NCBI GenBank assembly: GCA_004563595.2
Contig: CP042461.1
Location: 1,260,001-1,292,000, forward strand
Source of the DNA: Candidatus Saccharimonadota bacterium
GTDB taxonomy: Bacteria > Patescibacteriota > Gracilibacteria > BD1-5 > UBA6164
Direction of reading: 5' to 3'
DNA length: 32,000 nt
Part shown: one piece after another, positions 1 through 32,000 of the stretch
Layout: every line of letters begins with the position of its first letter
Numbering within the stretch: the stretch's first letter is position 1
Notes under the pieces: generated by a model
The model's input: only the letters and a program-made list of their open reading frames with translations
Told to the model about the DNA's origin: nothing
Databases searched by the model: none
Translations under genes and position numbers: made by a program

Positions 1-563
1 TCATGAATTATATCTCATCAATTTAATACAAAAAATTTAAGTCCATATATATTTTCGTTAAATTCATCCATACTCACTACTTCTGTTGTCTGATTTTGAA
101 TAGATATTTGTTTTATCAAAAGTCATCCACCAACTACATCTGTTGAATATTTTTCACTAATCATTAATTGTTTTCAATCTTCAATGCATCTAAAAATTTC
201 CGCTAATAATTGTTTTATTCTTCTCGTCACAATATTTGATGCTCTTAAAAAATCTCATCAATTGTTACTGTCATTTATTATTAAATTAATTAAATTATTT
301 ATTGCGGCTATCCCCCCCTCATAACCATCATGACTTGATATTTCATTCATTATTGCTGGAACTTGATTACGGTAAAACTTCGAGTTTTTTAGATGTGGTA
401 AAATATCGTTTCATAATACCTCTTTATTTCTTACTACAAGATTAATAGTAGTAGATAACTTATCAATGACAGCATTCACGTGAGAATGAACAAAACCTAG
501 TCCATCTGAGATATCTTGACTTTTAAGTGATTCAATAGTTAACTCATTCATCTTAATATGCAT
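1..563 (-). CDS. hypothetical protein, partial (C-terminus beyond window start)
   Basis: A hand scan finds no in-frame TAA/TAG from 563 down to position 1 when TGA=Gly. The N-terminus is MHIKMNELTIESLKSQDISDGLGFVHSH, with an alternative ATG at 551. Several TGA codons are in frame. No family recognised. Confidence 0.5.
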
Positions 564-780
564 AATAATGAAATATTAGATAAGTGATTCTAATGTAATT
601 CTGTTAATAATCAACCTTTGAATATACCATAACTGGTGACTAACGATAGTTACCATCATATTTTACCTATTTTAAAGCAATAAATGTGGTATATAATTAA
701 AGACTGGTAATTATCTTTGACTATAATCCATTTTTGTTTACTATATATTTAATATCAAAAAGAAAGTTTTTGGTGTTGAA

Positions 781-827
781 TTAAGTCCATTTATTTCACA
801 AAAGGAGGATGAAGTAAATGGACTTAA
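781..827. other. perfect 13-bp stem-loop whose 21-nt loop carries AAAGGAGGATG
   Basis: ttaagtccattta (781-793) is the exact reverse complement of taaatggacttaa (815-827). It lies in the 347-bp gap between two minus-strand genes. Confidence 0.6.
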
Positions 828-840
828 CCAATAAAGGAGC

Positions 841-897
841 AAAAAGACAGTTGTACTTACCCTGAAGGAGGAACAGGGTAGATACAACTGTCTTTTT
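841..897. terminator. intrinsic terminator-like hairpin downstream of prfA (bidirectional shape)
   Basis: The outer stem is gacagttgta (846-855) / tacaactgtc (883-892), the inner stem is ccctg/caggg, and the loop is aaggaggaa. An A-run precedes it and a T-run follows it. It lies 19 nt past the prfA stop on the minus strand. Confidence 0.65.
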
Positions 898-910
898 CGT
901 TCTTATTTTT

Positions 911-1990
911 TTATACTTGACCTTTTCATGCAGATTCAAGCTTCGCTTGTTGATCAGCTACTGCACAAGCATCAATGATCGGAGCGAGTTTTCATAACAT
1001 TATATGAGGTATTCATGAGAAATTTTGTCAGATCCTATGATCTGTAACCCTATCTTGAGGGAAATTATAAGTTCTGATTTTTTCTGACCTATCTCATGAT
1101 CATACTTGAGACTGTCTTGCTTCTCAGAGTTCTTTTGCTCTTTGCTCTTCGGCTAAAGTGTATAATTTTGACCTCATAATAGCAAAAGCTTTATCTCTAT
1201 TTTTATGCTGACTTCTCCCATCTGAACATAAAACGATAATTCCAGTAGGAAGATGCTTTAAATGGACTGCAGAATCTGCCTTGTTTGCATGTTGTCATCC
1301 AGGACCTCATGATCTCGTAAACTTCATTTCAATTTCATCCATATTCAAAACTACATCAAGCTCATCTACTTCTGGCATAATTGCAACTGTAATTGCTGAA
1401 GTATGGACTCTTCATTTATTTTCTGTTTCTGGAATTCTTTGAACTCTATGTACCCCTGATTCATATTTAAACCTTGAATATGCTCATTCTCATTTAATTT
1501 CAAATACCATTTCTTTTACCCCTCACGCTTCACTGATATTTTGCTCAACTATTTCAATTTTATATCCTTCTCCTTCAGCAAAAATAATATATGCCCTCGA
1601 TAATTCTCATGCGAATAGTGCTGCTTCATCTCACCCTGTACCAGCCCTGAGCTCAACCATAATATTTTTTTCATCGTTTGGGTCTTTTGGTAACAATTCT
1701 AGCTTTAAACGCTCTTCCATTTCAGGGATTTGATCTTCAATTTCTTTGATTTCTTCTTTTAACATATCTTTCATTTCAGTATCTTTTTCAGAACTGAGCA
1801 TTTCTTTATTCTCTATTAATGATTCATTAGCATTTTTATATTCTTTATATAAATTTACAGCTCATTCAATTGCTTTTTTTCTTGTAGCAACCTCTCTTAT
1901 TTTTTTTTGATCTTTAAAAATATTAGGATCTCCTAATTTATTCTCCAACTCTTTATATTCAGCTACCAAATTATCTAAATTGAATTTCAT
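911..1990 (-). CDS. prfA: peptide chain release factor 1
   Basis: Full hand translation gives 359 aa: [25 protein letters not shown]...RAGTGGDEAALFAGEL...[19 protein letters not shown]...RSGGPGGQHANK...[20 protein letters not shown]. It has an RF1-type P-x-T tripeptide and a GGQ motif. About 17 in-frame TGA sit at Gly positions. The stop is TAA at 911-913. Confidence 0.95.
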
Positions 1991-2053
1991 TTACTTTTAT
2001 TATCTACTAAATTTTGTGTGATTGTAGTGAAAAAATGAAAAAATGCAAGAAAC

Positions 2054-2083
2054 AAAAAAGAAGACAAAGGGTCTTCTTTTTTT
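2054..2083 (-). terminator. intrinsic terminator of obg
   Basis: aagaagac (2058-2065) pairs with gtcttctt (2071-2078), flanked by A- and T-runs. It lies directly after the code-25 stop of obg at 2086. Confidence 0.6.
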
Positions 2084-2085
2084 CA

Positions 2086-3444
2086 TTATATTTTATATTT
2101 CAACCTATCTAAAGGTATTTCTTTTCAAGCAATTACTATTTTCGGTTTTATCTCTTTTTCTTCTGAACCCTCAAAGAAGAAACTATTATCAAGGTCTTCT
2201 TTTTCAAGTTTTTGTGCAAGTTGTTGTTCTAAATCTTTCATCACCATCAATTTTTCTAAGACATCATAGACTCTCATAACGGCTTCACCATTTGTGAAAT
2301 CTGACATTCTTACAATTTGTTCTAATCTCTCACCTTTTGCTTCAAAAACTAAATCTCCTAAATATCTAAGAGTTACTTTTTTAGGGTCAGTAGTATTTTT
2401 TAAATTATATATTTTTAATTCATCATCTTCATTTTCTCATAATTGTTCAATTATTTTTTCTCTTGAATATGAATCAATAAGAAAGTCGACAAGGTCATCT
2501 ATTCATTCTCCTGTAGCTGCTGAGATAACAAATACTTCTTTGTTATGTTTTTTCTTAAATTCCGAAACGATATAGTCTTTCATTTCATCATCTAACAAGT
2601 CAGCTTTTGAGAATACAACAATTTCTTCTTTTTTTGCTAAGTCTTCAGAAAAATATTCAAGCTCCTTTCTGATATCTTCATAATCAGAGAAAACTTTATC
2701 CATTCTATACATATCAAGAAGATGAAGGAGTACTCCAGTTCTTTCAATATGTTTCAAAAATTCTATTCACAGTCCTTTTCATTGACTCGCTCATGGAATA
2801 AGCCCTGGAACATCTTCAAGTACCAATGATTTTCATTTATGATCTAGTACTCATAAATTTGGAGTCAAAGTGGTAAATGGGTAGTCTCCGATTTTTGGTT
2901 TTACATTTGTAATATTTCAAATGAGAGTTGATTTTCATGCTGATGGTACTCCTATAATTCAAATATCTGCTACTAATTTCAATTCTAATAGAAGATCCTT
3001 TTCTTCTGATATATCTCAGATTTCTGCAAATGCGGGAGCTTGTCTTGTAGAAGAACAGAAGTGGGCATTCCCAAAACCACCTTTTCATCATTTCGCGATG
3101 AGTAATCTGGTGTTATTTTCATCTAAGTCAGCTAGAATTTCTTCCGTATTTGCATCTCTCACAATAGTTCAAACAGGAATCTTTAGAATAAGGTCTTCTC
3201 CATTTGCCCCATGACATAACTGAGTTCAACCTCACTCACCTTTCTCAGCTTGTAAAACTTTTTTATGTCTATATTCTGAAAGAGTATTAAGATTATTATC
3301 AGTTTGTAATATTATATTTCCTCCATGTCCAGCATCTCCACCCCGGGGACCTCATTTTGGTATATATTTTTCTCTTCTCCAACTAACAAGACCATCTCAT
3401 CATTTTCAGGCAATAACTTTTATTTTTACTTCATCTATAAACAC
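2086..3444 (-). CDS. obg: GTPase Obg/CgtA
   Basis: GTG start. The N-terminus is (M)[42 protein letters not shown]. The G domain reads GIIGVPSAGKSTLI...DVPGLIPGASQGKGLG...FSKADL, and the Gly in SAGKS is TGA at 2935-2937. The standard-code stop TGA at 2125-2127 is read through to TAA at 2086-2088, which abuts the terminator. Confidence 0.92.
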
Positions 3445-3558
3445 TCGTATTTTAATTATGAATTACACATTGATTTTATTATATTTCTTTTCTTCATGAA
3501 ATCAAAAAATAACCCTATTTTTGCCCGAAGGCTGGGTTATTCATCTTTGTTTATTATT

Positions 3559-3633
3559 TGGTGTCAATGGGTGGATTTGAACCACCGACCGCAGGGATAT
3601 GAATCCTGTGCTCTACCCCTGAGCTACACTGAC
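3559..3633 (-). tRNA. tRNA with CAU anticodon (elongator Met or lysidine-type Ile2; not an initiator)
   Basis: 75 nt: GTCAGTGTAGCTCAGGGGTAGAGCACAGGATTCATATCCCTGCGGTCGGTGGTTCAAATCCACCCATTGACACCA. It folds as a cloverleaf with a paired G1:C72, a T-arm GGTGGTTCAAATCCACC and an encoded CCA. The anticodon loop is TTCATAT, with an A31/C39 mismatch closing the stem. Confidence 0.85.
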
Positions 3634-3809: not shown

Positions 3810-4097
3810 ATGGCAAACTATGAATTAATGCTCATTACAAACCCTAACATCACTGATGAAGAAAGGAATGAATGTATTTGAGAGCTCAAAGAACTTTTCG
3901 AAAAAAACTCTGTTAAAATCGAAAATGAAGATATTTGGGGAGATAAAAAATTAGCATACAAAATTAATAAATGTGAAAGAGGTTTCTACCATCTTTATGA
4001 CTTAGACTTTGATGGAAAGCTTATTAAGGTTTTATCAAAAAGTATAAACCTTAATGCAAATATCTGGAGATATATGTTTGTTAAAAAAGAAGCATAA
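3810..4097 (+). CDS. rpsF: 30S ribosomal protein S6
   Basis: 95 aa: MANYELMLITNPNITDEERNECIGELKELFEKNSVKIENEDIWGDKKLAYKINKCERGFYHLYDLDFDGKLIKVLSKSINLNANIWRYMFVKKEA. One TGA is in frame. It sits in the conserved rpsF-ssb-rpsR order. Confidence 0.9.
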
Positions 4098-4146: not shown

Positions 4147-4539
4147 ATGAGAACTGTAAACAAAGTAACTCTTATTTGAAATGTTACAAGAGATCCCGTG
4201 GTAAAGACTACTGAAGCATGAAAAAAAATAGCAATGTTTACTATTGCTACAAATAGATACTTCAAAAGTGGTGATTGAGAAAGTAAGTCTGAATCTGAAT
4301 TTCATAACTGTGTTGCATGGGGAAACCTTGCAGATAGAATTGAAAGCTTCTTAGTAAAATGAAAATTAATATATATAGAAGGAAGATTAAAAACAAGAGT
4401 TATAGAAAAAGAAGATGAAACAAGAATATATAAAACTGAAGTTGTTGCTTCAGACCTCATTTTCCTCAATAAAAGATCTGACTTTAATGAAACTGAAACA
4501 GTTTCTGAAACAACGGATCATGATGAAGATAAATTTTAA
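4147..4539 (+). CDS. ssb: single-stranded DNA-binding protein
   Basis: 130 aa: MRTVNKVTLIGNVTRDPVVKTTEAGKKIAMFTIATNRYF...FHNCVAWGNLADRIESFLVKGKLIYIEGRLKTRV...ETTDHDEDKF. It has an OB-fold signature and an acidic tail ending in F. Four in-frame TGA. Confidence 0.9.
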
Positions 4540-4893: not shown

Positions 4894-6696
4894 ATGTCAT
4901 TTAGAAATATTGCCATTATTGCCCATGTTGATCATGGGAAAACTACATTAGTAGATGAACTTTTAAAAGCTGATGATAACTTTGATACTAGAATTGGTAT
5001 TGAAGAAAGAGCTATGGATAGCAACGCTCAAGAACAAGAAAGAGGGATTACTATTTACTCGAAAAATACCGGTATTAATTATAAAGGAAATAAAATCAAT
5101 ATTGTTGATACTCCAGGGCATGCTGATTTTGGTTCTGAAGTAGAAAGAGTACTCAGAACTGTTGATTCAGTTTGTTTAGTAGTAGATGCATATGAAGGTC
5201 CTATGCCTCAAACAAAATTTGTACTTAAGAAATCACTCGAACTTGGTTTACATCCAATTATCCTTATTAATAAAATGGATAAACCTTCTGCAAGAGCTGA
5301 ATGGGTAGTTGATCAATTATTTGATTTATTTGTACAACTTGGGGCTACTGATGAGCAATTAGAGCATCTAAATGAACCTGTATACGCTATTGCAAGAGAT
5401 GGTCTTGCTTGGACAGATGAAAAACCAGAACAAAAAGATATTACTCCTCTTCTTGATTATATCATGGAAAAGGTTCCTACAAAAGCAAATGATGCTTCTG
5501 CTCCTTTAAAAATGCAAATTGCAAACCTTGGATATGATAACTTCTTAGGAAGACTTGGTATTGGTAGAGTCTATGATGGTACTGTTAAAGTTGGTCAAGA
5601 AGTGATTATTACTGCAAATGATGGAACTCAAAGAAAAGGAAAAATTTCTGATATTCTTACAAATGAGGGTTTAGAAAAAATAAAAGCTACTGAAGCAGTT
5701 GCTGGTGATATTATTACTATTGCTGGTATCCCTGATATATTTGTAGGTGAAACTGTTGCTGCTAATGAAGAAATTGCTGCTATGCCACCTATTACTATAG
5801 ATGAACCTACTCTAAAAATGGAATTCTTAGTAAATAACTCTCCATTTGCTGGAAGAGAAGGTAAATTTGTAACTTCAAGACAAATCAGAGATAGATTAGA
5901 AAAAGAAATGGAAACAAACGTAGGGTTAAAAGTTGATTTCAATGCTGGTGATAACTATGAAGTTGCAGGAAGATGAGAACTTCATTTATCAGTACTTATT
6001 GAAACTATGAGAAGAGAAGGTTTTGAATTACAAGTTGGTGCTCCAGTTGTAATTATGCATGAACAAGATGGTGTTAAAATGGAACCTATAGAAAATGTAA
6101 ACATATCAGTTCCTGCTGGAATTGAAGGTACTGTTATTGCAGAACTTGGAAAAAGAAAAGGACTTATGTCTAACATGGTTGAGTCAAATGGTATTGTAAA
6201 CTTAGAATTCTCAGTTCCAACAAGGGGTTTACTTGGTTTCAAATCATTATTTACAACAATGACAAAAGGTGAAGGTCTCCTTTCAAGTTCATTTGATGCA
6301 TTTGAAAAATATAAAGGTGCTATTGAAAAAAGAGCTGTTGGTTCTATGATCTCTATGGAAAATGGGAAAACTATGGCTTACTCTCTCTTTAAATTACAAG
6401 ATAGAGGTACTATATTTGTTCAACCAGCTACTGAGATATATGAAGGTATGATTCTTGGTGAATCTAATAAAGATCAAGATTTAACAGTAAATGCGACAAA
6501 AAATAAAAAGCTTACAAATGTAAGAGCATCTGGTACAGATGAAGCATTAAAACTTACTCCACCAAAACTTATGTCTTTGGAAGAAGCTATTGATTACATC
6601 TCTGCAGATGAATACGTAGAAATCACTCCAGAAACAATTAGATTAAGAAAAAAATTCTTAAAAGAGGGTGAAAGAAAAAGAGGAAAAAGTGATTAG
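4894..6696 (+). CDS. typA: translational GTPase TypA/BipA
   Basis: Track ORFs 4894..5976 and 6007..6696 are one 600-aa frame joined by a single TGA (5974-5976). That TGA falls on the conserved Gly of [21 protein letters not shown]. The N-terminus is [21 protein letters not shown]. Confidence 0.95.
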
Positions 6697-6710: not shown

Positions 6711-6747
6711 AAAAAAAGAGAGATTCTGATTGAATCTCTCTTTTTTG
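6711..6747 (+). terminator. intrinsic terminator of typA
   Basis: aagagagattc pairs with gaatctctctt (about 6716-6742), followed by a T-run. Confidence 0.7.
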
Positions 6748-6836: not shown

Positions 6837-9365
<2,529 letters not shown>

Positions 9366-9761: not shown

Positions 9762-10124
9762 TTATGCCCCAACAAGGAGACCAAGAACCCATGTAACAAT
9801 AGAACCTGCGATAAAGATTACTACTAATCAAATAGCCGCTTGAGTAATAATTGTTCTTCATGTTTTTACTTTTTCTTCATCTCAACCAGCAGTTAAGATA
9901 TTGAAACCTCCCCAAAGGAGATATACAACTGCAAGAATAGCAAGAAAAGCCATAGCGTTTGCAATAATATTTTGTATTGTTACATCTGCTCCTTGACCAG
10001 TATCTCCTATCTTTTGATCTACTTTTCCTAAACCAAAATCTGGTGCTGCATTTACAGAATTTAATGCTAATAACCCTGCACCAGCTGAAGCATAAAATGT
10101 GTTTTTTACTATATTTTTCATCAT
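9762..10124 (-). CDS. VirB2/TrbC-like T4SS pilin family protein (single module)
   Basis: 120 aa. The signal peptide is MMKNIVKNTFYASAGAGLLALNSVNAAPD. The hairpin module is AFLAILAVVYLLWGGFNILTAGGDEEKVKTGRTIITQAAIGLVVIFIAGSIV (TM, G-DEEK-basic turn, TM). The track ORF stops at TGA 9882, but reading continues to TAA at 9762-9764. Confidence 0.7.
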
Positions 10125-10260: not shown

Positions 10261-10812
10261 ATGGAGAGAAAACAACTTATTCAAAAACTAAGAATCTACT
10301 GAAAAGAAAATGATGTCCCAAATATCACAGATGTAAATGCTCATTTTTTAAGAGACCTGATCAAAATTAAACGAGTACAGAATATGCTTGAGATATGAAC
10401 AGCAAATGGTTTTTCAGGTATTCAATTTGGGATCGAGCTTGAAAAAATAAACTGAAAACTCACTTCTGTTGATTTTTCAGAAAAATCATATCTACAAGCA
10501 GTTGAAAATATAAAAGAAGCTGCTCTCGATAATATTATTTCTCTTATTTGGTGAAATGCATTAGATGAGATTCCAAAACTGACTGAAACTTACGATTTTG
10601 TATTTATAGACTGAATGAAAAGAAGGTCTGTTGATTTCCTCAGCCTTGTCTGGGATAAGGTGGAGGTATGATGAATCATAGTTATTGATGACGTTATTAA
10701 GTTCAAAGAAAAAATGGTGTGACTCTGGGAATATTTAGAAAAAAATAATATAGAATTTAATGTAATTCCTATTGATATAGATGATGGGGTTATGATGATA
10801 GTGAAGGGGTAA
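10261..10812 (+). CDS. class I SAM-dependent O-methyltransferase (family 3, YrrM/TrmR-like)
   Basis: 183 aa: ...MLEIGTANGFSGIQFG...YDFVFIDGMKRRSVDFL...GGIIVIDDVIKF. The Gly of the SAM motif EIGT is TGA at 10396-10398. Confidence 0.8.
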
Positions 10813-10916: not shown

Positions 10917-12422
10917 ATGAAATTCATAATAAAGCCATTTTCAGAAATAATGATTAAATCAAAGCCTGTGAGGAAAAGATTATTACAGACTTTGCAATAT
11001 AACTTAAATTTAAGAGTCAAAGCTCTTAATAGTAACTTAAAGGTGAGTATATTTTACGATAAGTTAGAATTAAACATCAAAGATCCAGATTGAGAAACAG
11101 AATTTGATTTGGTTGCAATAAAAAAAGCTTTATCAAGAACTCCTTGAATTGAGAGTTTTCTTGAAGTTGAAAGTCATGAGATATGTGATTTTGATGCTAT
11201 ATTAGAAAAAGCTGCAGAAGTATATTTAAATCAAATAAAAGATAAAAGTTTTGTAGTAAGGGTAAAAAGAAGTGGAAAACATGATTTTACATCCGTTGAG
11301 TTAGAAAGATATGTATGAGCATGACTCCTCAAAAAACTTGATACATTATGAATTCATGGAAAAGTAGATGTAAAGACTCCAGAAATAAAAGTAGCCATTG
11401 AGGTAAAAGATGAAAATCTCTATATAGTTAAAAATACTGGATATTGAATGGGATGATACCCCACTGGAGCACAAGATAAAATTATTAGCTTAATTTCTGG
11501 ATGATTTGACTCTGGAGTTTCAACGTACTCTATGATGAAAAGAGGTTGTAAGGTAGATTTTCTATTCTTCAACCTGTGAGGTTCTGCTCATGAACTCTGA
11601 GTAAAACAAGTTGCTTACTTTCTTAATAATCAATTTTCTGTTTGATACAGTGCCAATATCATCACTGTCCCGTTTGAAAAGCTTGTCCGTGAGTTAGTTA
11701 CTAATATTCATCATAAATACAGAGCTATTATTCTTAAAAGATGTATGCTTAAAATTGCAGATCAAATCTCTCAAGAACAAGATTATTACGCTATAGTTAA
11801 AGGAGATAGTTTAGGTCAAGTTTCAAGTCAAACCCTTAAAAATATGTTTGTTATAGACAAAGCATCTGATACTCTCGTACTGAGACCTCTCATAGCATTT
11901 AACAAACAAGAAATTGTAAATATTACTAAACAGATCGGGACCTATGATTTCGCATGTAATATGCCGGAATATTGTGGGGTTATTTCAGACAAACCTTCTA
12001 CTGGTGCTAAATTGGAAGATGTACTGAAAGAAGAAAAAAATCTTGACCTCAGTATATTAGAAGAGGCTTTTATAAATAAAAAAGTAGCAAAGGTTACTGA
12101 TGTTATTAATCAAATCCAGACAGGGAATAATGATATAGAATACTCTAACTTTGCTCTTGAAAATGATGTTGTTATAGATGTCAGGGATCCTGAAAATATC
12201 AAGAAAAAACCTCTTGTAATCGAATGAAAAGAAAATTTAGAGATACCTTTTTATGATATCAATAATGTATTTAAAGATCTCGATCAAAGTAAAACTTATC
12301 TCCTATATTGTGATAAGTGAGTCATGTCAAAATTACATTGATTATATCTGAAAGAAAAATGATTTGGGAATGTAAAAGTTTTTAAAGTTCTTGAAAAAGA
12401 TAAGACTTGTGGAACTTTATAA
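10917..12422 (+). CDS. thiI: tRNA 4-thiouridine(8) synthase ThiI with C-terminal rhodanese domain
   Basis: 501 aa: MKFIIKPFSEIMIKSKPVRKRL.... The PP-loop is ISLISGGFDSGVS, whose second Gly is TGA at 11502-11504. It also has ...AIVKGDSLGQVSSQTL and a C-terminal rhodanese-like YCDKGVMS. Confidence 0.9.
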
Positions 12423-14598: not shown

Positions 14599-15060
14599 TT
14601 AAATAAATTTCTTCAGTGCCATTTTTGCCTCTTTATCCATTGACCTTTCCTTGAGAACCTGCTTCTTTTGATGAGCCTTTCTCCCTTTTGCCAATCAAAC
14701 TCTTAACTTAATCAAACTTCACTTAAAATACAGTTCTAATGGAATCACAGAGTATCATGCCTCTTTGATTTTAGATCATATATATGTAATAGTCTTCCTA
14801 TGTAAGAATATTTTTCTTGGAGCCTCGACTTCTATCGTTTCTCTATTTGAAAGTGCTTTCCATGGAGTAATATGCATTCATTTTACATATAATTCCCCAC
14901 TCATAAGTGAAACATATGCTCACTTCAAGTTTACATGCTTCGCTCTTACACTCTTTGTTTCATATCACTTTAACTCAATTCATGCCTCCCATGAATCAAG
15001 TATTTCATAATCAAAATATGCTTTTTTATTCTTTGTTATTAATGCATCATGTTTTTTCAT
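14599..15060 (-). CDS. smpB: SsrA-binding protein SmpB
   Basis: 153 aa: MKKHDALITKNKKAYFDYEILDSWEAGIELKGYETKSVRAKHVNLKGAYVSL...GMHITPW...RKIFLHRKTI...GYSVIPLELYFKGSLIKLRVGLAKGRKAHQKK. All in-frame TGA fall at typical Gly positions. Confidence 0.92.
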
Positions 15061-16799: not shown

Positions 16800-19700
16800 T
16801 TATTTCCACTTCTTGTTCATCCACTCCTCTAGTCAGCCAATATCCTCCACTGAAATTTTCGTGGAGATTTCTTGTCATTTCAGGTTTATAAATACCTTGA
16901 TATCTCAGCTATGTTGAGTAAGTAAGAACTCTTTCAGCTCATGTAAATCTTGTTTCATAGCTGAATGAGGTATATCAACAACAAATTTATGAAGAACTTC
17001 TGGATCAAGAGCAACGAGTTGTAATTCTTTTGCTTGTTTTCCAATATTTATTTTTTCTTCTAGATTTTCATCAAACTTTTCCCCTCCTGACTCAGACTCA
17101 TTACTCTCTGAATTCTCTAAATCTGCTGTATCATTTAGATGTTTATGTAAAAATCTTTTTCAAGTATTAAAGAGTCAAAGATCAGTTGCTTGCTCTCTTA
17201 TCATTGCTATGCTGGCAAATTTCATATCACGTGTTCTAATACTTTTTCTTCCGTATTCAAAATTTACATCTAATGTTCCATTTACTATGATCACTTTATC
17301 TTCTTCCACTTTTTCTTTATATTTATCTAAGTCTCTTGGGAATAAAACTACTTCAAAATCATAATCAAATCATTCACATTTTAAAAACATCATTGTTTTT
17401 CAAGTCTTTGTGATAATTTTTCTAATATCAATAATCACTCCAACAGCTTGTACTACTTCCTCTTTTTCATCTTTTTTATCTTTTTTCTTTTGTTCTGCAT
17501 CTTTTCATTCGTTTTCTCTATCATAGATTTCTTGTAATTCTTGCATACTCATTTTTAACTTCTTTGTATTCGAGCTTCTTCTATTACAATATCTGCTCAA
17601 TCCATCAAGAGGGTGACCAGAAACATAAATTCATATTACTTCTTTTTCTCATCTTAATTTTTCTTCAAATGTGAATGGTTCACCTTCAATAAGCTCAAGA
17701 ATATCTTCAAATTCATCTGAATTATCAAATAAACCTATCTGACTGGTCTGTTTCTTTTTTTCATCTTTTCTACAAAACCTGATAATATCCAAAATACTAT
17801 CAAACATTTGTCTTCTTTCTCATAGGTCATCCATAGCTCAAGCAAGTATAAGGGCTTCGAGAGATTTTTTATTAATCACTTCATTTCAACAAAATTCAAT
17901 AAAATCTTCCAGTGAGTTAAATTTTCCACCAGCTTCTTTTCTAGCTTCAATAATCCTGTCGATTGGTCCCTCTCAAATTCATTTGATAGCTTTCAGTCAA
18001 AATCTTATATTATCATCATCAATATAAGTAAAATGTTTCAACGATTCTTGTACACTTGGTGGAAGAACACTAATTCACTTTGATTCACTCTCTGCAACTT
18101 CTAATACAATCCTTTCCATGTTTTCTTCATCTGAAATCATCACAGATGTAAGAAACTCTGTTGGATAATATGCTTTTAAATATGCTGTCTGGTATGCAAT
18201 AAAAGCATAACAAGCGGCATGAGACTTATTAAATGAATAGTTAGCTGCAGGCTGTATCATCTCTTCATATATATATCTACTTACTTCAGGCTTATATTGT
18301 TTATATGATTCAGATTTGATAATAAACTCCTTTTTTAAAGCTTCAATAACTTCAATTTTTTTCTTTCATATTCACCTTCTCAGTAGATCTGCTTCTCATA
18401 GAGAAAAACCTGCCATATATTGAACGATAAACATAAGTTGTTCCTGATATACTGCAATTCCATATGATACATCTAATATCTGTTTCAGATCTTCATTTAG
18501 TTTCATTTTTTGCTCTTCTATTTCTTCATCACTATACTTCTTCTTTAAAATCTCTACCAAATCATCTGTCATATATTTGATATCCTCTCTTCAAAATTTC
18601 CTATCAATATAGGTAGGAATATAAGCCAATGGTCCTGGTCTATAAAGAGACACCATCGCAATAATATCATCAAATGTATTTGGTTGTAGGTCTTTCAAAT
18701 ACTTTCTCATCCCATCAGATTCAAATTGAAATACTCATGTTGTATCTCATTCTGCAAATATTTCAAATGATTTTTGGTCAGCAGTATCTATTTGTAATAT
18801 ATCAAAATCATCTCATTTACTATTTTTAATAATTTTTTGAGCTCTTTTTATAATAGTCAGATTCCTAAGTCATAAAAAATCCATCTTAAGAAGACCAAGA
18901 TCCTCAAGAGGGTTCGCACTATATTGAGTTATGATACTCTCTGAATCCTTTGGAGGGTGTTGCAGCGCTGTAAAATTTGTCATTGGCTGTGGTGCAATAA
19001 TTACGGCACAAGCATGAACTCACAACTGCCTTACATTTCACTCAATTTTAAGTGCATTGTCTATGATTTCTTTATATTTTTCATTGGTATCATATGCTTC
19101 AAAAAACTCTGGAGAATCCTGAAGAGCTCCTTGTAGTTTTGTTCCTGGTTTCTCAGGAATGAGTTTTACAAGAGCATTCATCTCTGCAAAAGGAATTCCA
19201 TATACCCTTCATACATCTTTCACGGCAGCTCTTGCTGCAAAAGTACCAAAGGTACATATTTGTGCTACTCTATCTGCACCATATTTATTTCTACAATATT
19301 CTACGACTCTATCTCTTTCATTATCGGCAAAATCTGTATCGATATCAGGCATAGAGATTCTGGCTGGATTCAAAAATCTTTCAAATAGAAGATCATATTT
19401 CATAGGATCTATATCTGTGATTCATGACAAAAATGCCATAAGCGAACCAGCAGCTGATCATCTTCATGGTCATACTGGAATATCGTTATCACGTGCCCAA
19501 TTAATATAATCAGCCACAATCAAAAAGTAAGCATCAAATCACATTTCATGAATTACTACAAGTTCATACTCAAGCCTTTCTATGAAATCCTGTTGCTCTT
19601 GTGATAATTTTGATAGGAGTTCTTTCTTTTCATCAGTGTAATAGATAAGAGAGAGTTCTTTCAATTCTTCTGGTGAAGTTTCTGTCAGTTCTTTATCAAG

Positions 19701-20741
19701 AGAGGGTTTATCAAGTTTTTTAATAAATTCATAAATTGTCTGGTCATCAAGTCAGTAATCAAACCTCCAATTCAGTCATTTAAAAGAAAGATATCTTAAA
19801 TACCACTCCGAACTATCAAGTTTTTTTAGGACCGGTCCGGTGTTTTTCTTTTTTGACTCTATAACTGACTCATACCTTTCATTATCTTTTTCAGGAAGTT
19901 CAAAGGTTGGAATAAGCACTCCTCAAGTTTCTATTTCGATAGAAACCATATCTGCAATCTTTTGTGTATTACTCAATGCTTCAGGAAGAAAGCCAAATAG
20001 TATTTGCATATTTTCTTCATCTAGAAGAGAATAATTTCCATTCATCAGAGTTGTCCTATCTGGATTTTCTATTTCATGTCCTGTTCAAAGAGCCTGTATA
20101 ACATCTTGGGTTCTTGAGTCTTCTGGATCTACATAAAAACAGTTATTTGTAGCTACCACTGGAATTTGATGATTTTTATTGAGTTCTATTAAGGTATCTG
20201 TTACCAGTTTTTGTTTCGGTATATCATCATGATATATAAGCTCAAGATAATAGTTTTCTTTTCAAAAAACTGACGTATATTCAGCTATTCTTTGTAAGAT
20301 AGCCTCTTCTGATTTTCATGATAAGATATAATAGGGGATTTCTCCATTAATTGGTCATGAAAGACACACTACATTGTCTACATTTCCACGGAGATCATCA
20401 AAAGTTACTTTTGAAATCCCTCATCAGTTTTCTAAACTTGCTTTTGATGTAAGTGCTATAATGTTTTTATATCCATCAAGATTTTTTGCAAGAAGAACAA
20501 GTTTATGATTGAGCGTGCTATCAAGAGAAGATTCTACATATATTTCTGTTCATAAGATAGGGGTAATTCATGCTTTTACACACTCTGTATACAACTCATG
20601 ACAACCATGTATATTTGAAGTATCTGTCAAAGCAATGGCTGACATTCCAAACTCCTTTGCTTTTTTTACATAGTCCTTTGGCTTTGGAAGTCACTCTAAT
20701 ATTGAATAATGAGAATGGTTATGTAAGTGGACAAATGACAT
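16800..20741 (-). CDS. dnaE: DNA polymerase III subunit alpha
   Basis: 1313 codons. A codon-by-codon scan of the whole frame found no TAA/TAG and about 45 in-frame TGA. The N-terminal PHP domain is [43 protein letters not shown]. The track fragments [31 protein letters not shown] and [30 protein letters not shown] belong to it. Confidence 0.95.
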
Positions 20742-20873
20742 CTTTTAGAGGAGAATTTAAGCAGTAAATTTATAAATATTATTGTATGAATTTTTTCTAT
20801 AAATTCTAGTTTTTTGCATTTAAAAAAATATTGTGATAAGATAAAAAGGAATTTATAAATAAATTGAGAATAT

Positions 20874-21486: not shown

Positions 21487-21927
21487 ATGAAAAGTAGTAG
21501 ACTTATTTTTCTTCTTATCAGTCTAATAATAACAAGTTGTGCTATTCTGACAACTGATGAGAAAAAATACTCTATACAGTATGAATGTGGGGAAGATAAA
21601 AAATTTACAAATTATTTTCAATCTGTTCCTTCAGAAATACTAAAACAACGATCCATGGTTGAATCAGCAAAATTGCATAAGTTCGAACATCAAACATGTA
21701 ATCAGATAGCATCGTCGTTATGACAATCGTCTCTCTGTAACATAAATAAAAACCGTAGTAAATTTACTACGGTTTTTTGAAATCCTATTTTTCTTCTCAA
21801 CTCTTCTCACTCTTCATCACTGGAAACAAGACAACATCTCTCAAATTTTCTTGTTCTGTCAATAATGATACTATTCTATCTATTCACATTCCCCAACCTG
21901 ATTGACATGGCATACCATATTCCATAG
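21487..21927 (+). CDS. putative lipoprotein; 3' end ambiguous
   Basis: It has a lipoprotein-type signal, MKSSRLIFLLISLIITSC. The 78-aa body has no TGA and ends at TGA 21721-21723. Under code 25 the frame runs through the terminator hairpin, and antisense into lysS, to TAG at 21925-21927. Confidence 0.5.
21748..21778. terminator. bidirectional intrinsic terminator
   Basis: ccgtagtaaa (21753-21762) pairs with tttactacgg (21763-21772), flanked by A- and T-runs. It lies 7 nt beyond the lysS stop. Confidence 0.8.
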
Positions 21928-23368
21928 CAAGTACAAAGTCTTCATCTCACGCTGTTGCTTCTTCGTCTCACATTGCAATTGCTCATGACTGTTCATCAAA
22001 TTTTTCTTGTTGTACTTTTGGGTCTACAAGTTCTGAATAAGCCTTTAGAACTTCCCATCCATTAAGTAATAGTTGGAATTGTTCTACTATATTTTCATTT
22101 TCATCACTTGCTCTTGCAAGAGGTTGCATTGTCTTTGGATAGTTATAGACAAATGCTGGTCATATAATAGAAGGTCTGAGTACCTTTTTATATAAATAAT
22201 CAATCATTGTTGCTGTTGCTTGTTTATCAATTCATTCCCAAGCATATCCTGCAGCTTTTATATCTGCTCTTAATTTTTCATCATCACCTGATTCATACTT
22301 ATCTATATCTATCCCTGATTTTTCTTTTACTCAAGCTATATAATCAACTTTTTCCCACGGAGTAGTGAAATCTACGGTTTGTACTTCTCCATCTTTATCT
22401 TTGATTTTTATTTCTCTATCAAGATTCATTTCATCAAATATAAAATCAAACATATCTTCTGTAAATTTCATATTATCATTGAAATTCCAATATGCAGCAT
22501 AATGCTCTACAGCAGTGAATTCTTGCATATGAGAAGGATCAGATCATTCATTCCTGAAATTTTTCCCTATTTCAAATACTCTTTCAAATCTTCCAACAGT
22601 TGCTTTCTTTAATGCTGTTTCTGGAGCAATTCTTAAGAAAAAATCTTCATCAAAATCATTATGATGAGTCACAAATGGTAGTGCTGCTGCTCAAGATGCT
22701 GAACTTCCTAAAACAGGAGTTTCAATTTCCATGAAATCATTTTTCCAATAAAATTCTCTTATTTTTTTAAGAAAATCACTTCTGAATTTAAATCTATCAA
22801 AAGATTCTTCATTCATAATAAGATCTAAGTATCTTTGCCTATAAATAGTTTCTCTATCTTGAATCCCATGAAATTTTTCAGGCAGAGGTCTTACTGCTTT
22901 TGAAAGAATTTGAAACTCATTTACAAAAAGAGTTAATTCTCCATGTTTTGTAAGAAATAAATCTCATGTGAGACCTATATAATCTCAAACCTGACAAAAT
23001 TTTTCAGCTATCTTAAACGCTGTTTTTTCTTCTCATGCAATCTCTATTTTTTCAACTCACTCTCTCCCTGTATTAAAAATAACCTTACCTCTCATAAAAG
23101 ATATTTGAATATCTCCTGTATGATCTCTAATTTTTCCGAATACCAGCTTTCCCATTCCTCTACTTGAAATAATTCTCCCTGCAGTTTTAAACTCTCAAAT
23201 TGATCAGTTCTCCATTAAGTCAGCAACATCTTTTATCTTTGCTTCACCTTTTCTAATATCTGAGATATCTTGTTTCCCATGAAAACTATTTGCATAACAA
23301 ATCACTCATGCATTTTTTAAGTTTTGTATCTTCTCTTGTCTATCTCTTGCTTCTTTTGAATAATCCAC
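21785..23368 (-). CDS. lysS: lysine--tRNA ligase (class II)
   Basis: 527 aa with a GTG start: (M)[28 protein letters not shown]...[44 protein letters not shown]...[26 protein letters not shown]...[23 protein letters not shown] stop at 21785-21787. Confidence 0.93.
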
Positions 23369-23544
23369 TCTATTTGTGTTAAAATTTTAAAATTATAGCT
23401 TTAAACTACCTATTTTTTCTAAAAATTCAAGATAAATATGAATTTTATTTACCTATCTATAAAAAGTAGATTGTGTCAACTTCTTTATTTGTTTCAGATC
23501 TATTTTTATGATAAAATTAAAGAGATTACATTTAATGTATACAA

Positions 23545-26352
23545 ATGAAAAAACTACTATTTATAATACTCTGATTCTTTATCTCAACTCAAAGCGCCTT
23601 TTGAGCTTTATACCCAGTTGATAAAAAACTGAATGCTGCAACAAAAAAACCTACTCCACAAACGGAAGAGTCTTTTTTTAGTTGAAGTATTGAAATGATG
23701 CAAAATATTTTGTATTATGCAATATTATGAGTATTACTAGTCATCTGACTTATACTCACTATCAAATTTATCCGTTTTTTATTTGAGATATATTATGCAA
23801 AAAATCTAAGGTATCTCAAAGTAACTCTCCCCAGAGCAGATTCTAAGCTTGATAAAGAAAAAGAAACAAAAAAAGATTTCAAAGAAAAAATTGGAATGAT
23901 GAGTATGTTTTATAAAGCAATACATAAGCTCAGTGAAGCCTGATTACGTGATACATTTTTAAACTTCCTTTTTAGACATTCAAAAATTAGTTTAGAACTT
24001 GTGTATAAAGATGGTGAAGTAACTTTTTATATTGTGACGTATAAAAATTACGTAAATCTTGTTACTCAACATTTAACATCAGTATATACAGATGCTGAGG
24101 TTCTTGTTGTTGACCCAAAAGATGATTATATCAAAATAAAACCAAAAGGATATTCTATGAGAGCAGCCTCTCTTTGAAAAGAACATGATGATGTGTATCC
24201 TATCAAAACATATAAATACTTAGAAGATGATCCTATAAACAATTTCACAAATGTATTTGGAGGCTTAAAAAAAGAAGATAAAGCTGTATTTCAACTCGTT
24301 ATTAAACCAGATTTTAAATGGAATAAAAAAGCATTAAATGCTTCAAGGCTGGTAGCAAAAGGACAGTATGGGAAAAAAAGAAAAAACCCACTGAGTTTTC
24401 TTGGATTTTTATACAACCCAATTATTGCAGTAATTCAATGACCAGATAGTATGATAGCTGGAGGTAATAATGCTCCTGGAGCGAGTGAAGGAGATGCATA
24501 TAAAATATTTAATCAAGCTGAAACAGAAGCCCAAAAAATCATGTGAGAAGCTGCTGCTCAGCCTGCTTTTAAAAGCTCAATTAGAGTGTTAGTAAGTAGT
24601 AAAGATCATAGAAGTTCTGAAAATGGGGTTCATGCTATTGTTGCTGCTGCATCAATTTTTACTGATGAGTATAACAACTCTCTTGATAATCCTCAAGTAA
24701 TGGAAGATGCTTTTCCATTTATATTTACTCCAATGAGATACTTTGGTTTTAAATTTAAACTCGTTGGTTTTTTTCAAAATGTATCGTATTTTTCTGCTGA
24801 TGAAATATCAACTCTCTATCACCTCCCAGATATAACCTATAATAGATCTCCAATTATTAATTGGTTGGAATATAAAAAACTCCCTACTCCTCATAATTTA
24901 AAAACCCCTCAAGAACCCACTATGCTCCAAGAAAAGGTAAAAGTAGGAGAAAAGGATGGGAAAGCAATTTATGAAACCAAAGATGTCCACAGACACCTTT
25001 GAGGATTCCCTGTCTATAAAGACTGAGTTGTACTTGGGTGGAATGAATATAGAAACAAGAAAACTCCTATATATTTCAATAGAAAAGATAGATGAAGACA
25101 TCATTATATCATCTGAAAATCATGAGGATGAAAGTCAGTTTTTATTGGATACCTTGCAAGACAAGATCTCCGGAATGGAGATGGTATCTGTGTGGTAGAT
25201 CCACATGGGGATTTAGTTGAAGATGTCCTTGCATTTACACCAAAAGAAAGAGCAAAAGATGTAATAGTCTTTGATCCAGCTGATACTGAAAGACCAATGG
25301 GACTCAATATGTTAGAAGTTATTAGTAAAGATCCTGAAATCAGAAAAAGAGAAATGGATAGAGCTGCTATGGACGCTACTGAAATATTTATCAAAATCTT
25401 TGGGGATGAAATCTTTGGTCCAAGAATCCAGCATTACTTCCGTAATGGGTGTCTCACTCTGATGGAAGATGAAGAAGATGGTGGAACTATCATAGATGTA
25501 CCGAGGCTTTTTGTAGATGAGGCATTTATGAAATATAAGACTTCAAAAATAAAAAATCCCGTAGTAAAATCATTCTGGGAGCATGAATATGCAAATACAG
25601 GAGATAGGGAAAAACAAGAAATGATACCGTATTTTTCTTCTAAATTCTGACCATTTATTACTAATACAACGATAAGAAATATTATCGGACAGCCAAAATC
25701 TGCTTTTAACATTAGAGAGATTATGGATAACAGAAAGGTTCTTCTTGTAAATCTATCAAAAGGGAAAATCTGATCTCTCAATGCACAATTACTGGGGCTC
25801 ATATTTGTATCCAAAATAAATATGGCTGCTATGTCGAGAGCTGATATGCCTGAGGAGGAAAGGAAAGATTTTTATATGTATGTTGATGAGTTTCAAAATT
25901 TTGCTACAGAAACCTTTTGAGAAATTCTATCAGAAGCCAGAAAATATCACCTCGCACTTATAATGGCTCACCAATTTATTGCACAAATATGATGAAATGG
26001 TTCTCCAAAATGAGATAAACCGAGTATCAAAGATGCGGTATTTGGGAATGCTGGTACTATTATGAGTTTCAAGGTTTGAGCCGATGATGCTGAGTATATG
26101 GAAAAAGAATATGCTCCTCTGCTCTCTCAACAAGATATTATCTGAATTGCGAACTTTACAGCATATTGTAAACTTAATATTGATAACGCAACAACCAGAC
26201 CATTTGATTTAAAAACAATATGGGATAATACCTATAAGAATAGAAAAATTGCTGAAATAATTAAAGAATATTCGAGAAAAAAATATTGAAGAAAGAAAAA
26301 GTATGTAGATATGGAAATCGAAGCAAGATTATGAATTATGCCTGATGAATAA
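23545..26352 (+). CDS. type IV secretion coupling protein-like ATPase (VirD4/TraG/TraD family)
   Basis: 935 aa in a single frame joining track ORFs 24193, 24586 and 25192. It has two N-terminal hydrophobic segments. The Walker A motif is HHYIIGKSGGGKS (25108-25137), with three Gly encoded by TGA. It also has VVDPHGDL, a Walker B-like FYMYVDEFQNF, LIMAHQ, and GNAGTIMSF as in TraG-D C-terminal regions. Confidence 0.8.
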
Positions 26353-26385
26353 AACATCAAACTTTTAAAAACTTAATATATTTTC

Positions 26386-27354: not shown

Positions 27355-27369
27355 CAATAAATAATAGAC

Positions 27370-28284: not shown

Positions 28285-28302
28285 AATTCTTTAAAAAAAA
28301 TT

Positions 28303-28719
28303 ATGAAAAAAATATTTATACAAATACTTTTGATTCTCTCAATGTTTTCTTTTTGAGTATTATCTAGTTATGCAGAAGAATGAATTCAAGTAACGGTCAC
28401 TGAAAGAATTCCTGGAGCGGGATGTGATAAATGAACAACTGATGATAATTGAAACATTTTATATAAATGTACTGTAAAACCATGATTCTGATCTGTTGTA
28501 GAAATGATGTGAAATATGATTAAATATTTTACATTCATAGCTGGGCTTGCTGGTGTCTTATTCATTGTAATAAATGGTATCATGTATTCTATGGGTGGGG
28601 CAGATCCAAGTATGAAAGATGAAGCAAAGAAAAGAATTACTGGGACATTGGTATGACTCGTTGTTCTCTTTATGAGTTGAGTGATATTAAATATCATTGC
28701 TCCTTGGATCTATAAATAA
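28303..28719 (+). CDS. VirB2/TrbC-like T4SS pilin family protein (single module)
   Basis: 138 aa. The signal peptide is MKKIFIQILLILSMFSFGVLSSYA, followed by a Cys pair (PGAGC...YKC). The module is IKYFTFIAGLAGVLFIVINGIMYSMGGADPSMKDEAKKRITGTLVGLVVLFMSGVILNIIAPW. Confidence 0.75.
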
Positions 28720-28721
28720 AA

Positions 28722-28762
28722 AAATACTCTTACTATAATATATAGTAAGAGTATTTTTTTTT
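28722..28762 (+). terminator. intrinsic terminator of the pilin operon
   Basis: A 16-bp perfect stem, aaatactcttactata (28722-28737) / tatagtaagagtattt (28741-28756), followed by a T-run. Confidence 0.8.
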
Positions 28763-28772: not shown

Positions 28773-28847
28773 TGGTTGCGGGGATTGGAATTGAACCAAT
28801 GGTCTTCGGGTTATGAGCCCGACGAGATACCACTTCTCCACCCCGCG
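28773..28847 (-). tRNA. initiator tRNA-fMet (CAU)
   Basis: CGCGGGGTGGAGAAGTGGTATCTCGTCGGGCTCATAACCCGAAGACCATTGGTTCAATTCCAATCCCCGCAACCA. It has the C1/A72 mismatch and three G:C pairs (GGG/CCC) closing the anticodon loop CTCATAA. It is near-identical in its key elements to the E. coli initiator. Confidence 0.92.
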
Positions 28848-28868
28848 GTATAAAAAATTACATTAAAA

Positions 28869-28943
28869 TGGTACGGCCACGGAGAATCGAACTCCGGTTG
28901 CCTGGATGAAAACCAGGTGTCCTAACCCCTAGACGATGGCCGC
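28869..28943 (-). tRNA. tRNA-Glu (UUC)
   Basis: GCGGCCATCGTCTAGGGGTTAGGACACCTGGTTTTCATCCAGGCAACCGGAGTTCGATTCTCCGTGGCCGTACCA. The anticodon stem is CCTGG/CCAGG and the loop is TTTTCAT, which places TTC at positions 34-36. It has a Glu-type D-arm and an encoded CCA. Confidence 0.88.
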
Positions 28944-28976
28944 ATAAAACTTAACGCTTGGATAGTATATACATAT

Positions 28977-29010
28977 AAAAAAATAGTCAAATTTTTTTGA
29001 CTATTTTTTT
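28977..29010 (-). terminator. hairpin, likely terminator of the cyclase gene; it overlaps a TTGACT box upstream of tRNA-Glu
   Basis: aaatagtcaaa (28981-28991) pairs with tttgactattt (28996-29006), flanked by A- and T-runs. Confidence 0.45.
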
Positions 29011-29105
29011 ATATTTTAAAAGCGAGAAAAAGATACCTCTTTCTTGAATATTCTCTCCATAACAGGAGAAAAGAGCTAGATTTTTAATGAATAATTTATT
29101 TCCGT

Positions 29106-31214
29106 TTATTTCTCACTCATAACCCAAATTCCATCCCAATTTTCTTCAGGAGAAACTTTCATGTAAGTTTCACATCTATTTTTATAAGTAATACTTGGCT
29201 TATCTCAAAGCTTTTCACACTTTTCAAAGAAAGAAAGAGCTTGTTTAAAGTCTTTCTTTAAATACAATGTAATTCACTTGGTATATTCTTTAATGACTGT
29301 CTTTTTTTCATCTGAAAGTTTTTCTTTTTCTGACAGAAGTTCATATATTACTACCGGTTTATTTTTTCATTTAACCTTTATTTTATCAAGATATCTAAAA
29401 TAAAAGTTATCTTTATTCTCTAGAAATACAGCTTCACTGACACAAATATAAGTTCCATAATACTTATTTACCCCTTCCAAACGAGAAGCTAGGTTTACAC
29501 TATCTCAAAGTGCGGTAAACTCCATTTTTCTTCCTATTGCTCAGATATTTCAAATAATTGCTTCTCAACTATGAATTCAAATCCTTGCTTTGATTTCAGA
29601 AAAACCTTCTTTATTCCATTTTTTATTTAATTTTCATAATAACTCTTGTTGTAGTAATGCTGACTTACATGCATTATACGAATCCTGTGGTCATGCATCT
29701 CAAAATGCACCCCAAAGTGCCATAATTGCATCTCCCTCATATTTATTTACAAATCATTTTTCATCTAATATCACATTCGACATTCCTCATAAATACTCCC
29801 TGAGAAAAGCTACCAGTTTTTCTGCTGTAAATTTTTCTGATATACTTGTAAATCATTCTATATCTGAGAAAAATATTGCTATACATTTCTTTTCTCCATT
29901 TAAGTTGATCTTTCAAGCTCATGAAAGTATTTCAGATGCAATATCAGTGGAAACATATTCTCATAAAGCTTTATTTAGCTTCATCTTATGTTTGTTTTCA
30001 ATAAGGTATTTTGCTATATTTGAAAATATCAGAGAAAATATAAGGGAAAATATAAGCTCTATTGGAAAGTTAATAATTAAATTTGTAGTATGAATGACAA
30101 TAAAAGGAAATATTATTATAAAAAGAGAAAAAACTGCAATATTACTCAAAATAAGTATATATCATGAGCGACTTAAATTAAAATATACTGAAACAATAAT
30201 AAGTAAAAATATCAAAACCCATTCTAGTTTTGTATCAAAATATCTTAAATAATTTTTATTCAATATGGTATTAATCATATTCACATGAGTATAAACTCAA
30301 TAATCAATACCATTAGGAGTGTAAAATACATCTTTTATTCAAGTAGCTGTTGCTCAAATCAAAATAATTTTATCTTTAAAATCAATATGGTTTTTAAGTT
30401 CTTCAAATTTTTTTGAGTCATATACATCTATAAATGACACTGTTTTTTTCTCTTTTTGAAAATCAGAATATTTTATATAATTTATAAGGATTTCCTTTTC
30501 TCAACTTCTTGCAAGTGGTATCTTTTTATTAGGTATGAGGTGATAAAAATTATCATCAACAAATGACTCTTTTGTAATAAAGTCTCTTTTATAAAATAAT
30601 GAATAATATGTTTTTAATACTGCGAGACTAAAGTGGTCAAAATATTCTCATTTTTTTGTTTTGGTAAAAGGTGTAATTCAGTATACCACATGATTTACAT
30701 CATCAATATCGGGACTATAGTAACCCGTCGCTTTAATAACATCCGAAAAAATAGATTTTTGAAAGATTCAGTTTTTCGAAAAATATGATCATATCAATAT
30801 ATTTCATGCCTGTTGTATAGATGCTCTAAACGCGGTATCTGATTCCTTTTTAAGAGACTCTTCTGCAAAAATAATATCAAACGCTATCAGAGTAGCTCAC
30901 GCATCATTTAAATGCTCTATAACAGGAATATAGGCCTTTCTATCAAAAGGGAACCTTCAAAGCTTTATATTACTATTATTTCCTTGTTCTAATGTCTTAT
31001 CATCAATCTCGACTATTAAAATATTATCGTTTATTTTTGATTGTTTGGCTTTATTTTTGATTGTATAATATGTATTTTGAATTTTTTTATCTAAAATATA
31101 AAATACTCAGGTTGAGCTCAAGATCACAACAAGTATCAGTATTATCAAGGATAATCATACTGATAAGATATTTTTTCATTCTAATGAAAAAATGTTTTTT
31201 ATATTAAAATGCAT
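29106..31214 (-). CDS. CHASE2 sensor domain-containing class III adenylate/guanylate cyclase
   Basis: 702 aa under code 25: MHFNIKNIFSLEGKNILSVGLSLIILILVVIL.... It has a periplasmic CHASE2-like region (ILIVEIDDKTLEQ...GRFPFDRKAYIPVIEHLNDAGATLIAFDIIF) and three TM segments. The cyclase core is IAIFFSDIEGFTSISE...YEGDAIMALWGA...IGIHSGEAIIGNIGA...FTALGDSVNLASRLEG. TAA stop at 29106-29108. Confidence 0.85.
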
Positions 31215-31224
31215 TAAAACAAAA

Positions 31225-32000
31225 TTATTTATTAATCAAAGAGTCCAACACTCAGTGTATTACCTTATCCGTATTATTTTTAATAGAATTATATCTACTC
31301 TTAATATCATCAACTGATATATTTTTAAATTTTGTAAGATCGACGCTTTGCCCAAATATATTTTTTAGACTCTCCAGGTTATTTAGCATAATTTGTTTCA
31401 GATCATCTGGAAGAATGTTAAAGTCAAAATAATCAGAAAATTTAATATCTAATTCCTTTAATATGTCGCTATGATTTTTCAAAATAGGAAGTATAGAATC
31501 TAGGTGATTAAAGTTTTTAGATTGAATAGTTTCCTTAAAGTCAAACATAATACTTTGAATGAGTACTTTTTTATTATCGTTTGATGCTGTAGCAAGTAAT
31601 ACTTCTTTTAATTTAATCTTATTGAGAAATAACATTCAATCATCTGAAGATTTTATAAAATTAATTTTTTGGTATTCAATAAGAAGTTTGTTATAGAGTT
31701 CTTGTTTTTCACTCTCTGACATTGTTCATATCAATTTTTCTAAATCTTCAGATTGTATAACTTCATCAAATTTCTTTAATATAATATTCTCTTTAAATTT
31801 CTCTAAAGCTTCTTGTTTTAATATCTCTAGGTACTCGGTATCATATTTATCATTTAAAGCTTCCCAAGCTTGATTTTTTATATCTCTAATAAACTTTTCA
31901 AGTTGTATAAAAGAAAATGTTTTTAATGAAAAAGGGTCTCTTTCTCAAATAATAAAAGACTTGTCATTTGTTGTAAGTGTAACTTCATGGTCTAAAACAT
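31225..32000 (-). CDS. hypothetical protein, partial (N-terminus beyond window end)
   Basis: The frame is open from 32000 to TAA at 31225-31227 when TGA=Gly. It extends track ORF 31252..31635 in both directions. The sequence is K/E/L/I-rich and probably helical (...EKFIRDIKNQAWEALNDKYDTEYLEILKQEALEKF...). No family recognised. Confidence 0.55.

Follow-up and report, generated by a model that had tools for sequence, protein, structure and literature searches.

Genes of the window and their stop codons

The stretch of DNA analysed here, a 32 kb window of contig CP042461.1 with 30% GC, carries a series of conserved bacterial genes in which the codon TGA occurs in frame, and the subject of this analysis is the reading of that codon as glycine (translation table 25). 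The genes on which the argument depends are the following, with the residue encoded by TGA in each motif given in square brackets.

911..1990, minus strand: prfA (release factor 1, RF1), 359 amino acids (aa); 16 in-frame TGA, stop TAA; TGA of the GGQ motif at 1295-1297 (GG[G]Q)
2086..3462, minus strand: obg GTPase; 21 in-frame TGA, stop TAA at 2086-2088; G1 motif SA[G]KS with TGA at 2935-2937; Pfam GTP1_OBG 1-155/155
4894..6696, plus strand: bipA/typA translational GTPase, 600 aa; one TGA (5974-5976, GR[G]ELH), stop TAG
6837..9365, minus strand: leuS (leucyl-tRNA synthetase, LeuRS), 842 aa; 23 TGA and 20 TGG; HVGHPE[G] at 9207-9209
10261..10812, plus strand: O-methyltransferase; 8 TGA; LEI[G]T at 10396-10398; Pfam Methyltransf_3
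10917..12422, plus strand: thiI (THUMP + PP-loop + rhodanese); 15 TGA; SG[G]FDS at 11502-11504; Pfam ThiI 1-197/197
14599..15060, minus strand: smpB; TGA in 8/10 Gly codons; Pfam SmpB 1-142/143
16800..20744, minus strand: dnaE (DNA polymerase III alpha), 1313 codons from ATG; 45 TGA, no TAA or TAG
21785..23386, minus strand: lysS (class II lysyl-tRNA synthetase); 17 TGA, stop TAG; Pfam tRNA-synt_2 2-307/308
23545..26352, plus strand: type IV coupling-protein-like ATPase; 25 TGA; Pfam T4SS-DNA_transf; Walker A at 25114-25131, TGA AAA TCA TGA GGA TGA = G K S G G G (three TGA codons)
29106..31214, minus strand: CHASE2-adenylate/guanylate cyclase; 33 TGA, 73% of its Gly codons; Pfam CHASE2 and Guanylate_cyc

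Non-overlapping open reading frames (ORFs) of at least 60 aa were compared under the standard code and with TGA, TAG or TAA freed in turn. The standard code gave 39 ORFs with a mean of 102 aa, which covered 36.9% of the window, whereas TGA as a sense codon gave 24 ORFs with a mean of 387 aa and a maximum of 1314 aa, which covered 86.8%. No comparable gain in length was obtained by freeing TAG (mean 99 aa, coverage 47%) or TAA (mean 119 aa, coverage 72%). Among the 20 complete genes, which comprise 26.8 kb of coding sequence, frame 0 contained 303 TGA and not one internal TAA or TAG, and frames 1 and 2 of the same genes together contained 648 TAA and 381 TAG. In a wider set of 22 ORFs the genes were closed by TAA (19) or TAG (2). 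TGA occurs in frame in practically every gene and makes up about 3.4% of all codons; it is the most used Gly codon, encoding roughly one in two glycines.

Terminator-like hairpins were found close behind the TAA or TAG stops of several genes, and their numbers (17 and 9) exceeded those expected in shuffled sequences (5.0 and 4.4) two- to threefold. The hairpins in question are listed below.

2054..2082, minus strand: hairpin of obg, stem of 12 pairs with a T run behind it, 3 nucleotides (nt) past the TAA stop
6712-6746: hairpin of bipA/leuS
14545-14514, minus strand: hairpin of smpB
21777-21748, minus strand: hairpin of lysS, behind the TAG stop
28718-28760, plus strand: hairpin of the third pilin gene

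An earlier note on this DNA, which had been made from the letters alone, held that TGA is a sense codon throughout the window, that seven well-known motifs carry TGA in frame, that dnaE forms one continuous frame of 1313 codons, and that the stops fall just ahead of terminators, as in obg, and it proposed a comparison of ORFs code by code. All of this was borne out by the frames, the motif positions and the hairpins described above.

The 39 short ORFs under the standard code are superficially like pseudogenisation, and we considered whether the TGA codons could be true stops, arising from pseudogene-rich decay or from errors of sequencing or assembly, or else serving as selenocysteine (Sec) sites or sites of programmed read-through. 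Neither decay nor random error can yield 303 in-frame TGA beside no TAA or TAG; the proteins obtained by reading through fit their Pfam profiles end to end; the TGA codons lie on invariant glycines and not on Cys or Sec positions; the same TGA positions are kept in more than 100 related genomes; and 3.4% of codons is far too many for Sec. We regard the probability of true stops as vanishingly small.

Amino acid encoded by TGA

The leuS gene, which has both TGA and TGG codons in number, allowed the two to be compared directly with 141 representative LeuRS homologues, gathered with the LeuRS of a relative (P0126) as query and of standard-code origin as shown by their W and G content. The 23 TGA columns held Gly in 58.6% of residues, followed by Asn at 8.6%, and Trp in only 4 of 2482 residues, whereas the 20 TGG columns held Trp in 80.9%; the GGN columns of the window's own LeuRS held Gly in 71.8%. 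At codons 303, 307, 334 and 539, all of them TGA, Gly was present in 139 to 141 of the 141 homologues. Similarly, all 34 standard-code BipA proteins from Bacilli had Gly opposite the single TGA of bipA. When all codons of LeuRS and BipA were tabulated together, TGA was the sole well-sampled codon which departed from the standard code, with a Gly fraction of 0.61 as against 0.64 for GGA.

Solved structures gave the same answer. In five alignments, to RF1 of T. thermophilus and S. mutans and to Obg of E. coli, B. subtilis and T. thermophilus, TGA was paired with Gly at 66 of 89 positions and with Trp at none; for prfA, Gly stood at 10 of the 16 TGA positions in each of the two RF1 proteins, and for obg at 15-16 of 19 in the three Obg proteins. 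Further, with G in place of W at TGA all 14 Pfam domains scored higher, by about 264 bits summed over 13 of them. The scores with G and with W were 199.5 and 154.2 bits for GTP1_OBG of obg, 66.2 and 44.1 for Methyltransf_3 of the O-methyltransferase, 151.6 and 130.2 for SmpB, 51.2 and 39.4 for T4SS-DNA_transf of the coupling-protein-like ATPase, and, in the cyclase, 143.6 and 114.3 for CHASE2 and 84 and 49.4 for Guanylate_cyc; a Peptidase_M23 domain was detected with G at TGA and lost with W.

TGA and GGN among relatives and in public translations

A public protein collection contained the DnaE proteins of 119 Gracilibacteria, in which TGA is translated as W, so these matches were used for the interchange of W and G only, a W at TGA there being uninformative on the amino acid. 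In the columns of the window's TGA codons, the relatives had W (that is, TGA) in 59% and G in 29%; in those of its GGN codons, W in 38% and G in 34%; and in those of its TGG codons, W in 92% and G in 0%. This pattern means that TGA and GGN swap as synonyms while TGG stays outside the exchange. The translation of TGA as W, as in table 4, was seen residue by residue in the three entries inspected in this way (P0001, P0123 and P0124, from the source organism and near relatives), and it also fits the W/G pattern over the whole set. In P0001, the collection's DnaE for the source organism, each of the 45 TGA codons appears as W.

The main competitor among known codes is translation table 4, in which UGA is Trp by means of a tRNA-Trp(UCA), as in Mycoplasma, Spiroplasma and several insect endosymbionts. 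The low GC of 30%, the evident sense use of TGA and the presence of RF1 as the only release factor seen would all suit this code, as would the public collection itself with its 45 W in P0001. However, Trp is virtually missing from the TGA columns of LeuRS and from the structure alignments, whereas it fills 81% of the TGG columns; the score of each Pfam domain drops when W is put in; TGG columns take no part in the exchange between TGA and GGN; and the tRNA(UCA) of relatives, described below, has U73 and G1-C2-G3 rather than the G73 of tRNA-Trp. We therefore hold Trp at these codons to be highly improbable. The earlier note had placed TGA on conserved glycines and suggested an alignment with profile columns, and here LeuRS, BipA, the solved structures and Pfam agreed with it, Gly being preferred and Trp nearly missing. 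Thus the homologue alignments, the structures, the Pfam scores and the interchange of TGA with GGN concur in supporting Gly, and not Trp or stop, as the meaning of TGA.

Origin of the window

The DnaE of the window has the same sequence as QFR39714.1 from Ca. Gracilibacteria bacterium 28_42_T64, in which all 45 TGA positions are G. Positions 6800-30741 of the window matched the 493-kb JGI contig Ga0239576_1000025 (metagenome 3300030037) at 23,942 of 23,942 bases. The nearest BipA loci, with 81-89% identity, were mostly from Gracilibacteria and for the rest from Peribacteria, Patescibacteria and unclassified bacterial metagenome-assembled genomes. The source genome is closed, 1.34 Mb in size, and its genes were called with code 25 (Sieber et al. 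mBio 2019, PMC6851277).

Decoding machinery

RF1, which reads UAA and UAG, is encoded in the window by prfA, with the GGQ motif, the PxT-type recognition tripeptide PET and the Pfam domains PCRF (3-194/194) and RF-1 (2-116/116); its best matches in PDB were 323 bits to RF1 and 197 bits to release factor 2 (RF2). It was reported that prfB, the RF2 gene, was undetected in this genome and in every other BD1-5 genome, while prfA was present (PMC6851277). The tRNA genes of the window, as found by ARAGORN, are two tRNA-Met and one tRNA-Glu.

3559-3633: tRNA-Met
28773..28943, minus strand: tRNA-Met(CAU) and tRNA-Glu(UUC)

A tRNA(UCA) was present in two related Gracilibacteria, L029 (7644-7812) and L030 (2385-2554), which are among the BipA-flanking loci of GTDB genomes. 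It is 79 nt long including the encoded CCA, has G1:C72, C2:G71, G3:C70, U73 and an enlarged D-loop, and lies 13-14 nt upstream of a tRNA-Gly(GCC). The two loci share it with 100% identity, although their tRNA-Gly(GCC) genes are distinguished by several substitutions. Rfam recognised it as tRNA at 45 bits, with tRNA-Sec not among the matches listed, and the ARAGORN label of tRNA-SeC is a mislabel owing to the UCA anticodon. This tRNA satisfies the rule for glycine acceptors given by the authors of Codetta (PMC8629427).

A metagenome scan with a pattern for Gly-like tRNA(UCA) gave eight matches, none of them from sample 3300030037. Three of the eight (L083, L084 and L085, i.e. BNJT01000814.1, BNJU01004903.1 and BNJU01005134.1) are dense and possibly phage-like tRNA arrays with several odd anticodon loops, of which L084 includes a tRNA with UCA anticodon (1638-1712); in the remaining ones ARAGORN found little or nothing.

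From these data a mechanism may be put together, in which a dedicated tRNA-Gly(UCA) with the glycine identity set G1:C72, C2:G71, G3:C70 and U73 would decode UGA, and RF2, the factor which terminates at UGA, would have been lost. AT mutation pressure would then favour TGA as the most AT-rich Gly codon. The part of the tRNA in this scheme is drawn from related genomes and the literature rather than from the window.

Weighing of the reading

Taken together, we conclude with a probability of about 97% that the window is part of the chromosome of Ca. Gracilibacteria bacterium 28_42_T64, or of an identical population genome, which uses table 25, with UGA as an ordinary Gly codon and termination at UAA and UAG only. 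UGA as Gly is a known code of Gracilibacteria and Absconditabacteria (PMC8629427, PMC3812714, PMC13092985), and proteomics of another BD1-5 bacterium gave 97 peptides specific for UGA as Gly and 3 specific for Trp (PMC4032931).

Four points weigh on the other side. About 40% of the residues in the TGA columns of LeuRS are not Gly; the columns concerned are variable, and the GGN codons of the window show much the same, with 28% not Gly. The window has no tRNA(UCA) by ARAGORN. The loss of RF2 comes from the published genome paper and concerns sequence beyond the 32 kb window. Finally, the same proteomic study reported rare readings of UGA other than Gly (PMC4032931), and for this reason decoding with a strictly single meaning is not proven.

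The assignment of UGA to Gly is correct but already known, since publications already cover the code, its lineage and the very genome in question, and the window adds nothing new on the genetic code itself. Its practical value is a warning on mistranslation. Pipelines with table 11 shatter the genes of the window, and those with table 4 turn about 3.4% of residues into Trp, the catalytic glycines of GGQ, the P-loops and the PP-loop included; the latter error has already entered the public protein collection, where 45 glycines of the source organism's DnaE appear as Trp.

Uneven use of TGA between genes

The genes of the window differ in their use of TGA, and three further genes are needed for the comparison.

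3810..4097, plus strand: rpsF (ribosomal protein S6); Pfam Ribosomal_S6 1-90/90
4147..4539, plus strand: ssb (single-strand DNA-binding protein); Pfam SSB 1-103/104
9762-10124, minus strand: small pilin gene

In bipA, TGA is only 1 of 50 Gly codons, as against 52% in the other genes of the window (binomial p = 8e-15; chi-square for the Gly family p = 1.4e-17), and other codon families of bipA also lean to T-ending or major codons. TGA is scarce in rpsF, ssb and the pilin gene of the window as well, whereas housekeeping genes for which lower expression is expected have 45-80%. Across relatives, TGA made up 10% of Gly codons in bipA and also in rpsF (19 relatives), 19% in ssb and 20% in the pilin gene, compared with 45-66% in prfA, obg, dnaE, lysS, smpB and the cyclase gene. 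The depletion in bipA is also found where the neighbouring genes differ (L029 and L030), and bipA of L020-L022 and L040 is without it. In the bipA flanks of 28 loci from relatives that read TGA as a sense codon, the higher the GC, the smaller the part of Gly codons taken by TGA (Spearman rho = -0.84, p = 3e-8), a trend which fits AT mutation pressure from GGN to TGA. We met no report of uneven TGA use among genes in the literature search.

Horizontal transfer of bipA was considered as the origin of its low TGA content and rejected. The GC of the gene is ordinary; its identity is 81-89% to Gracilibacteria orthologues and about 53% to those of Bacilli; the depletion is common to many relatives; and the shift to major codons extends to other codon families.

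The codon counts suggest that TGA may have been removed from highly expressed genes by translational selection. One way to account for this is that UGA, although mainly Gly, is costly, being read more slowly or at times misread as Trp by the near-cognate tRNA-Trp(CCA), and to this we give an even chance. The contrast of 2% in bipA with 52% in the other genes, the low shares in rpsF, ssb, bipA and the pilin gene of relatives, the general shift of bipA to T-ending and major codons, and the rare non-Gly peptides at UGA in the published proteomics all speak for a cost. Against it, rpsF, ssb and bipA adjoin in the window, so that a regional effect may have some part, although bipA is depleted beside other neighbours too (L029 and L030), and some relatives (L020-L022 and L040) lack the depletion. 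Such a cost refines code 25 and does not replace it. We give slightly less than even odds that UGA is no neutral synonym of GGN, being purged from the presumably highly expressed bipA, rpsF, ssb and pilin genes, while AT pressure would drive it to 50-80% elsewhere. If this is true, tRNA-Gly(UCA) would decode its codon at lower speed or with lower accuracy, and the number of TGA codons might serve to adjust translation gene by gene.

Other features of the window

A type IV secretion-like cluster (23545-28719, plus strand) consists of the 935-aa ATPase (T4SS-DNA_transf, DUF87) followed by three T4SS_pilin membrane proteins, two of which have the T4SS_pilin domain in three copies. The small pilin gene at 9762-10124 is a fourth one, 13 kb from this cluster. 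The ORF at 12463-14415 (minus strand) contains five tandem 45-bp repeats (91% matches, 13535-13761), which encode AEQ(A/V)RVLAEQKSQA(A/E) in a protein of 650 aa with no Pfam match. The TGA-sense ORF of the cyclase (29106-31259, minus strand) overlaps by about 35 nt with the end of the upstream ORF at 31225-31998 (minus strand), which has no Pfam match and a very low Gly content of 1.9%.

Comparison with known systems

A reassignment of CGA and CGG to Trp was reported for Absconditabacteria and some Gracilibacteria in the Codetta screen (PMC8629427), i.e. within the lineage of the window. CGN codons are nearly extinct in the window genes, where 17 CGN arginine codons were listed, including two CGG and three CGA, and AGA dominates. 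None of these two and three codons lies on an informative conserved column, and the CGG of Obg lies in a variable one, where solved Obg structures have D or A.

Selenocysteine recoding (SelA/SelB/SelC and SECIS) likewise has UGA read by a tRNA with UCA anticodon. Sec recoding is rare, site-specific and dependent on SECIS, and its tRNA is about 90-95 nt long with a long variable arm, whereas UGA accounts for about 3.4% of codons in the window, and the relatives have a tRNA(UCA) that is an ordinary cloverleaf of 79 nt with Gly identity elements. Table 4 of Mycoplasmatales/Entomoplasmatales and insect endosymbionts shares with the window the reassignment of UGA in AT-rich reduced genomes and the loss of RF2, but there UGA is Trp by tRNA-Trp(UCA) or wobble, and here it falls on Gly columns, with TGA and TGG strictly separate. 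Finally, no difference was found from table 25, the SR1/Gracilibacteria code (GTDB class JAEDAM01), the tRNA-Gly(UCA) being seen in related genomes only; the window has in common with it UGA as Gly, UAA and UAG as stops, RF1, low GC and the lineage itself.

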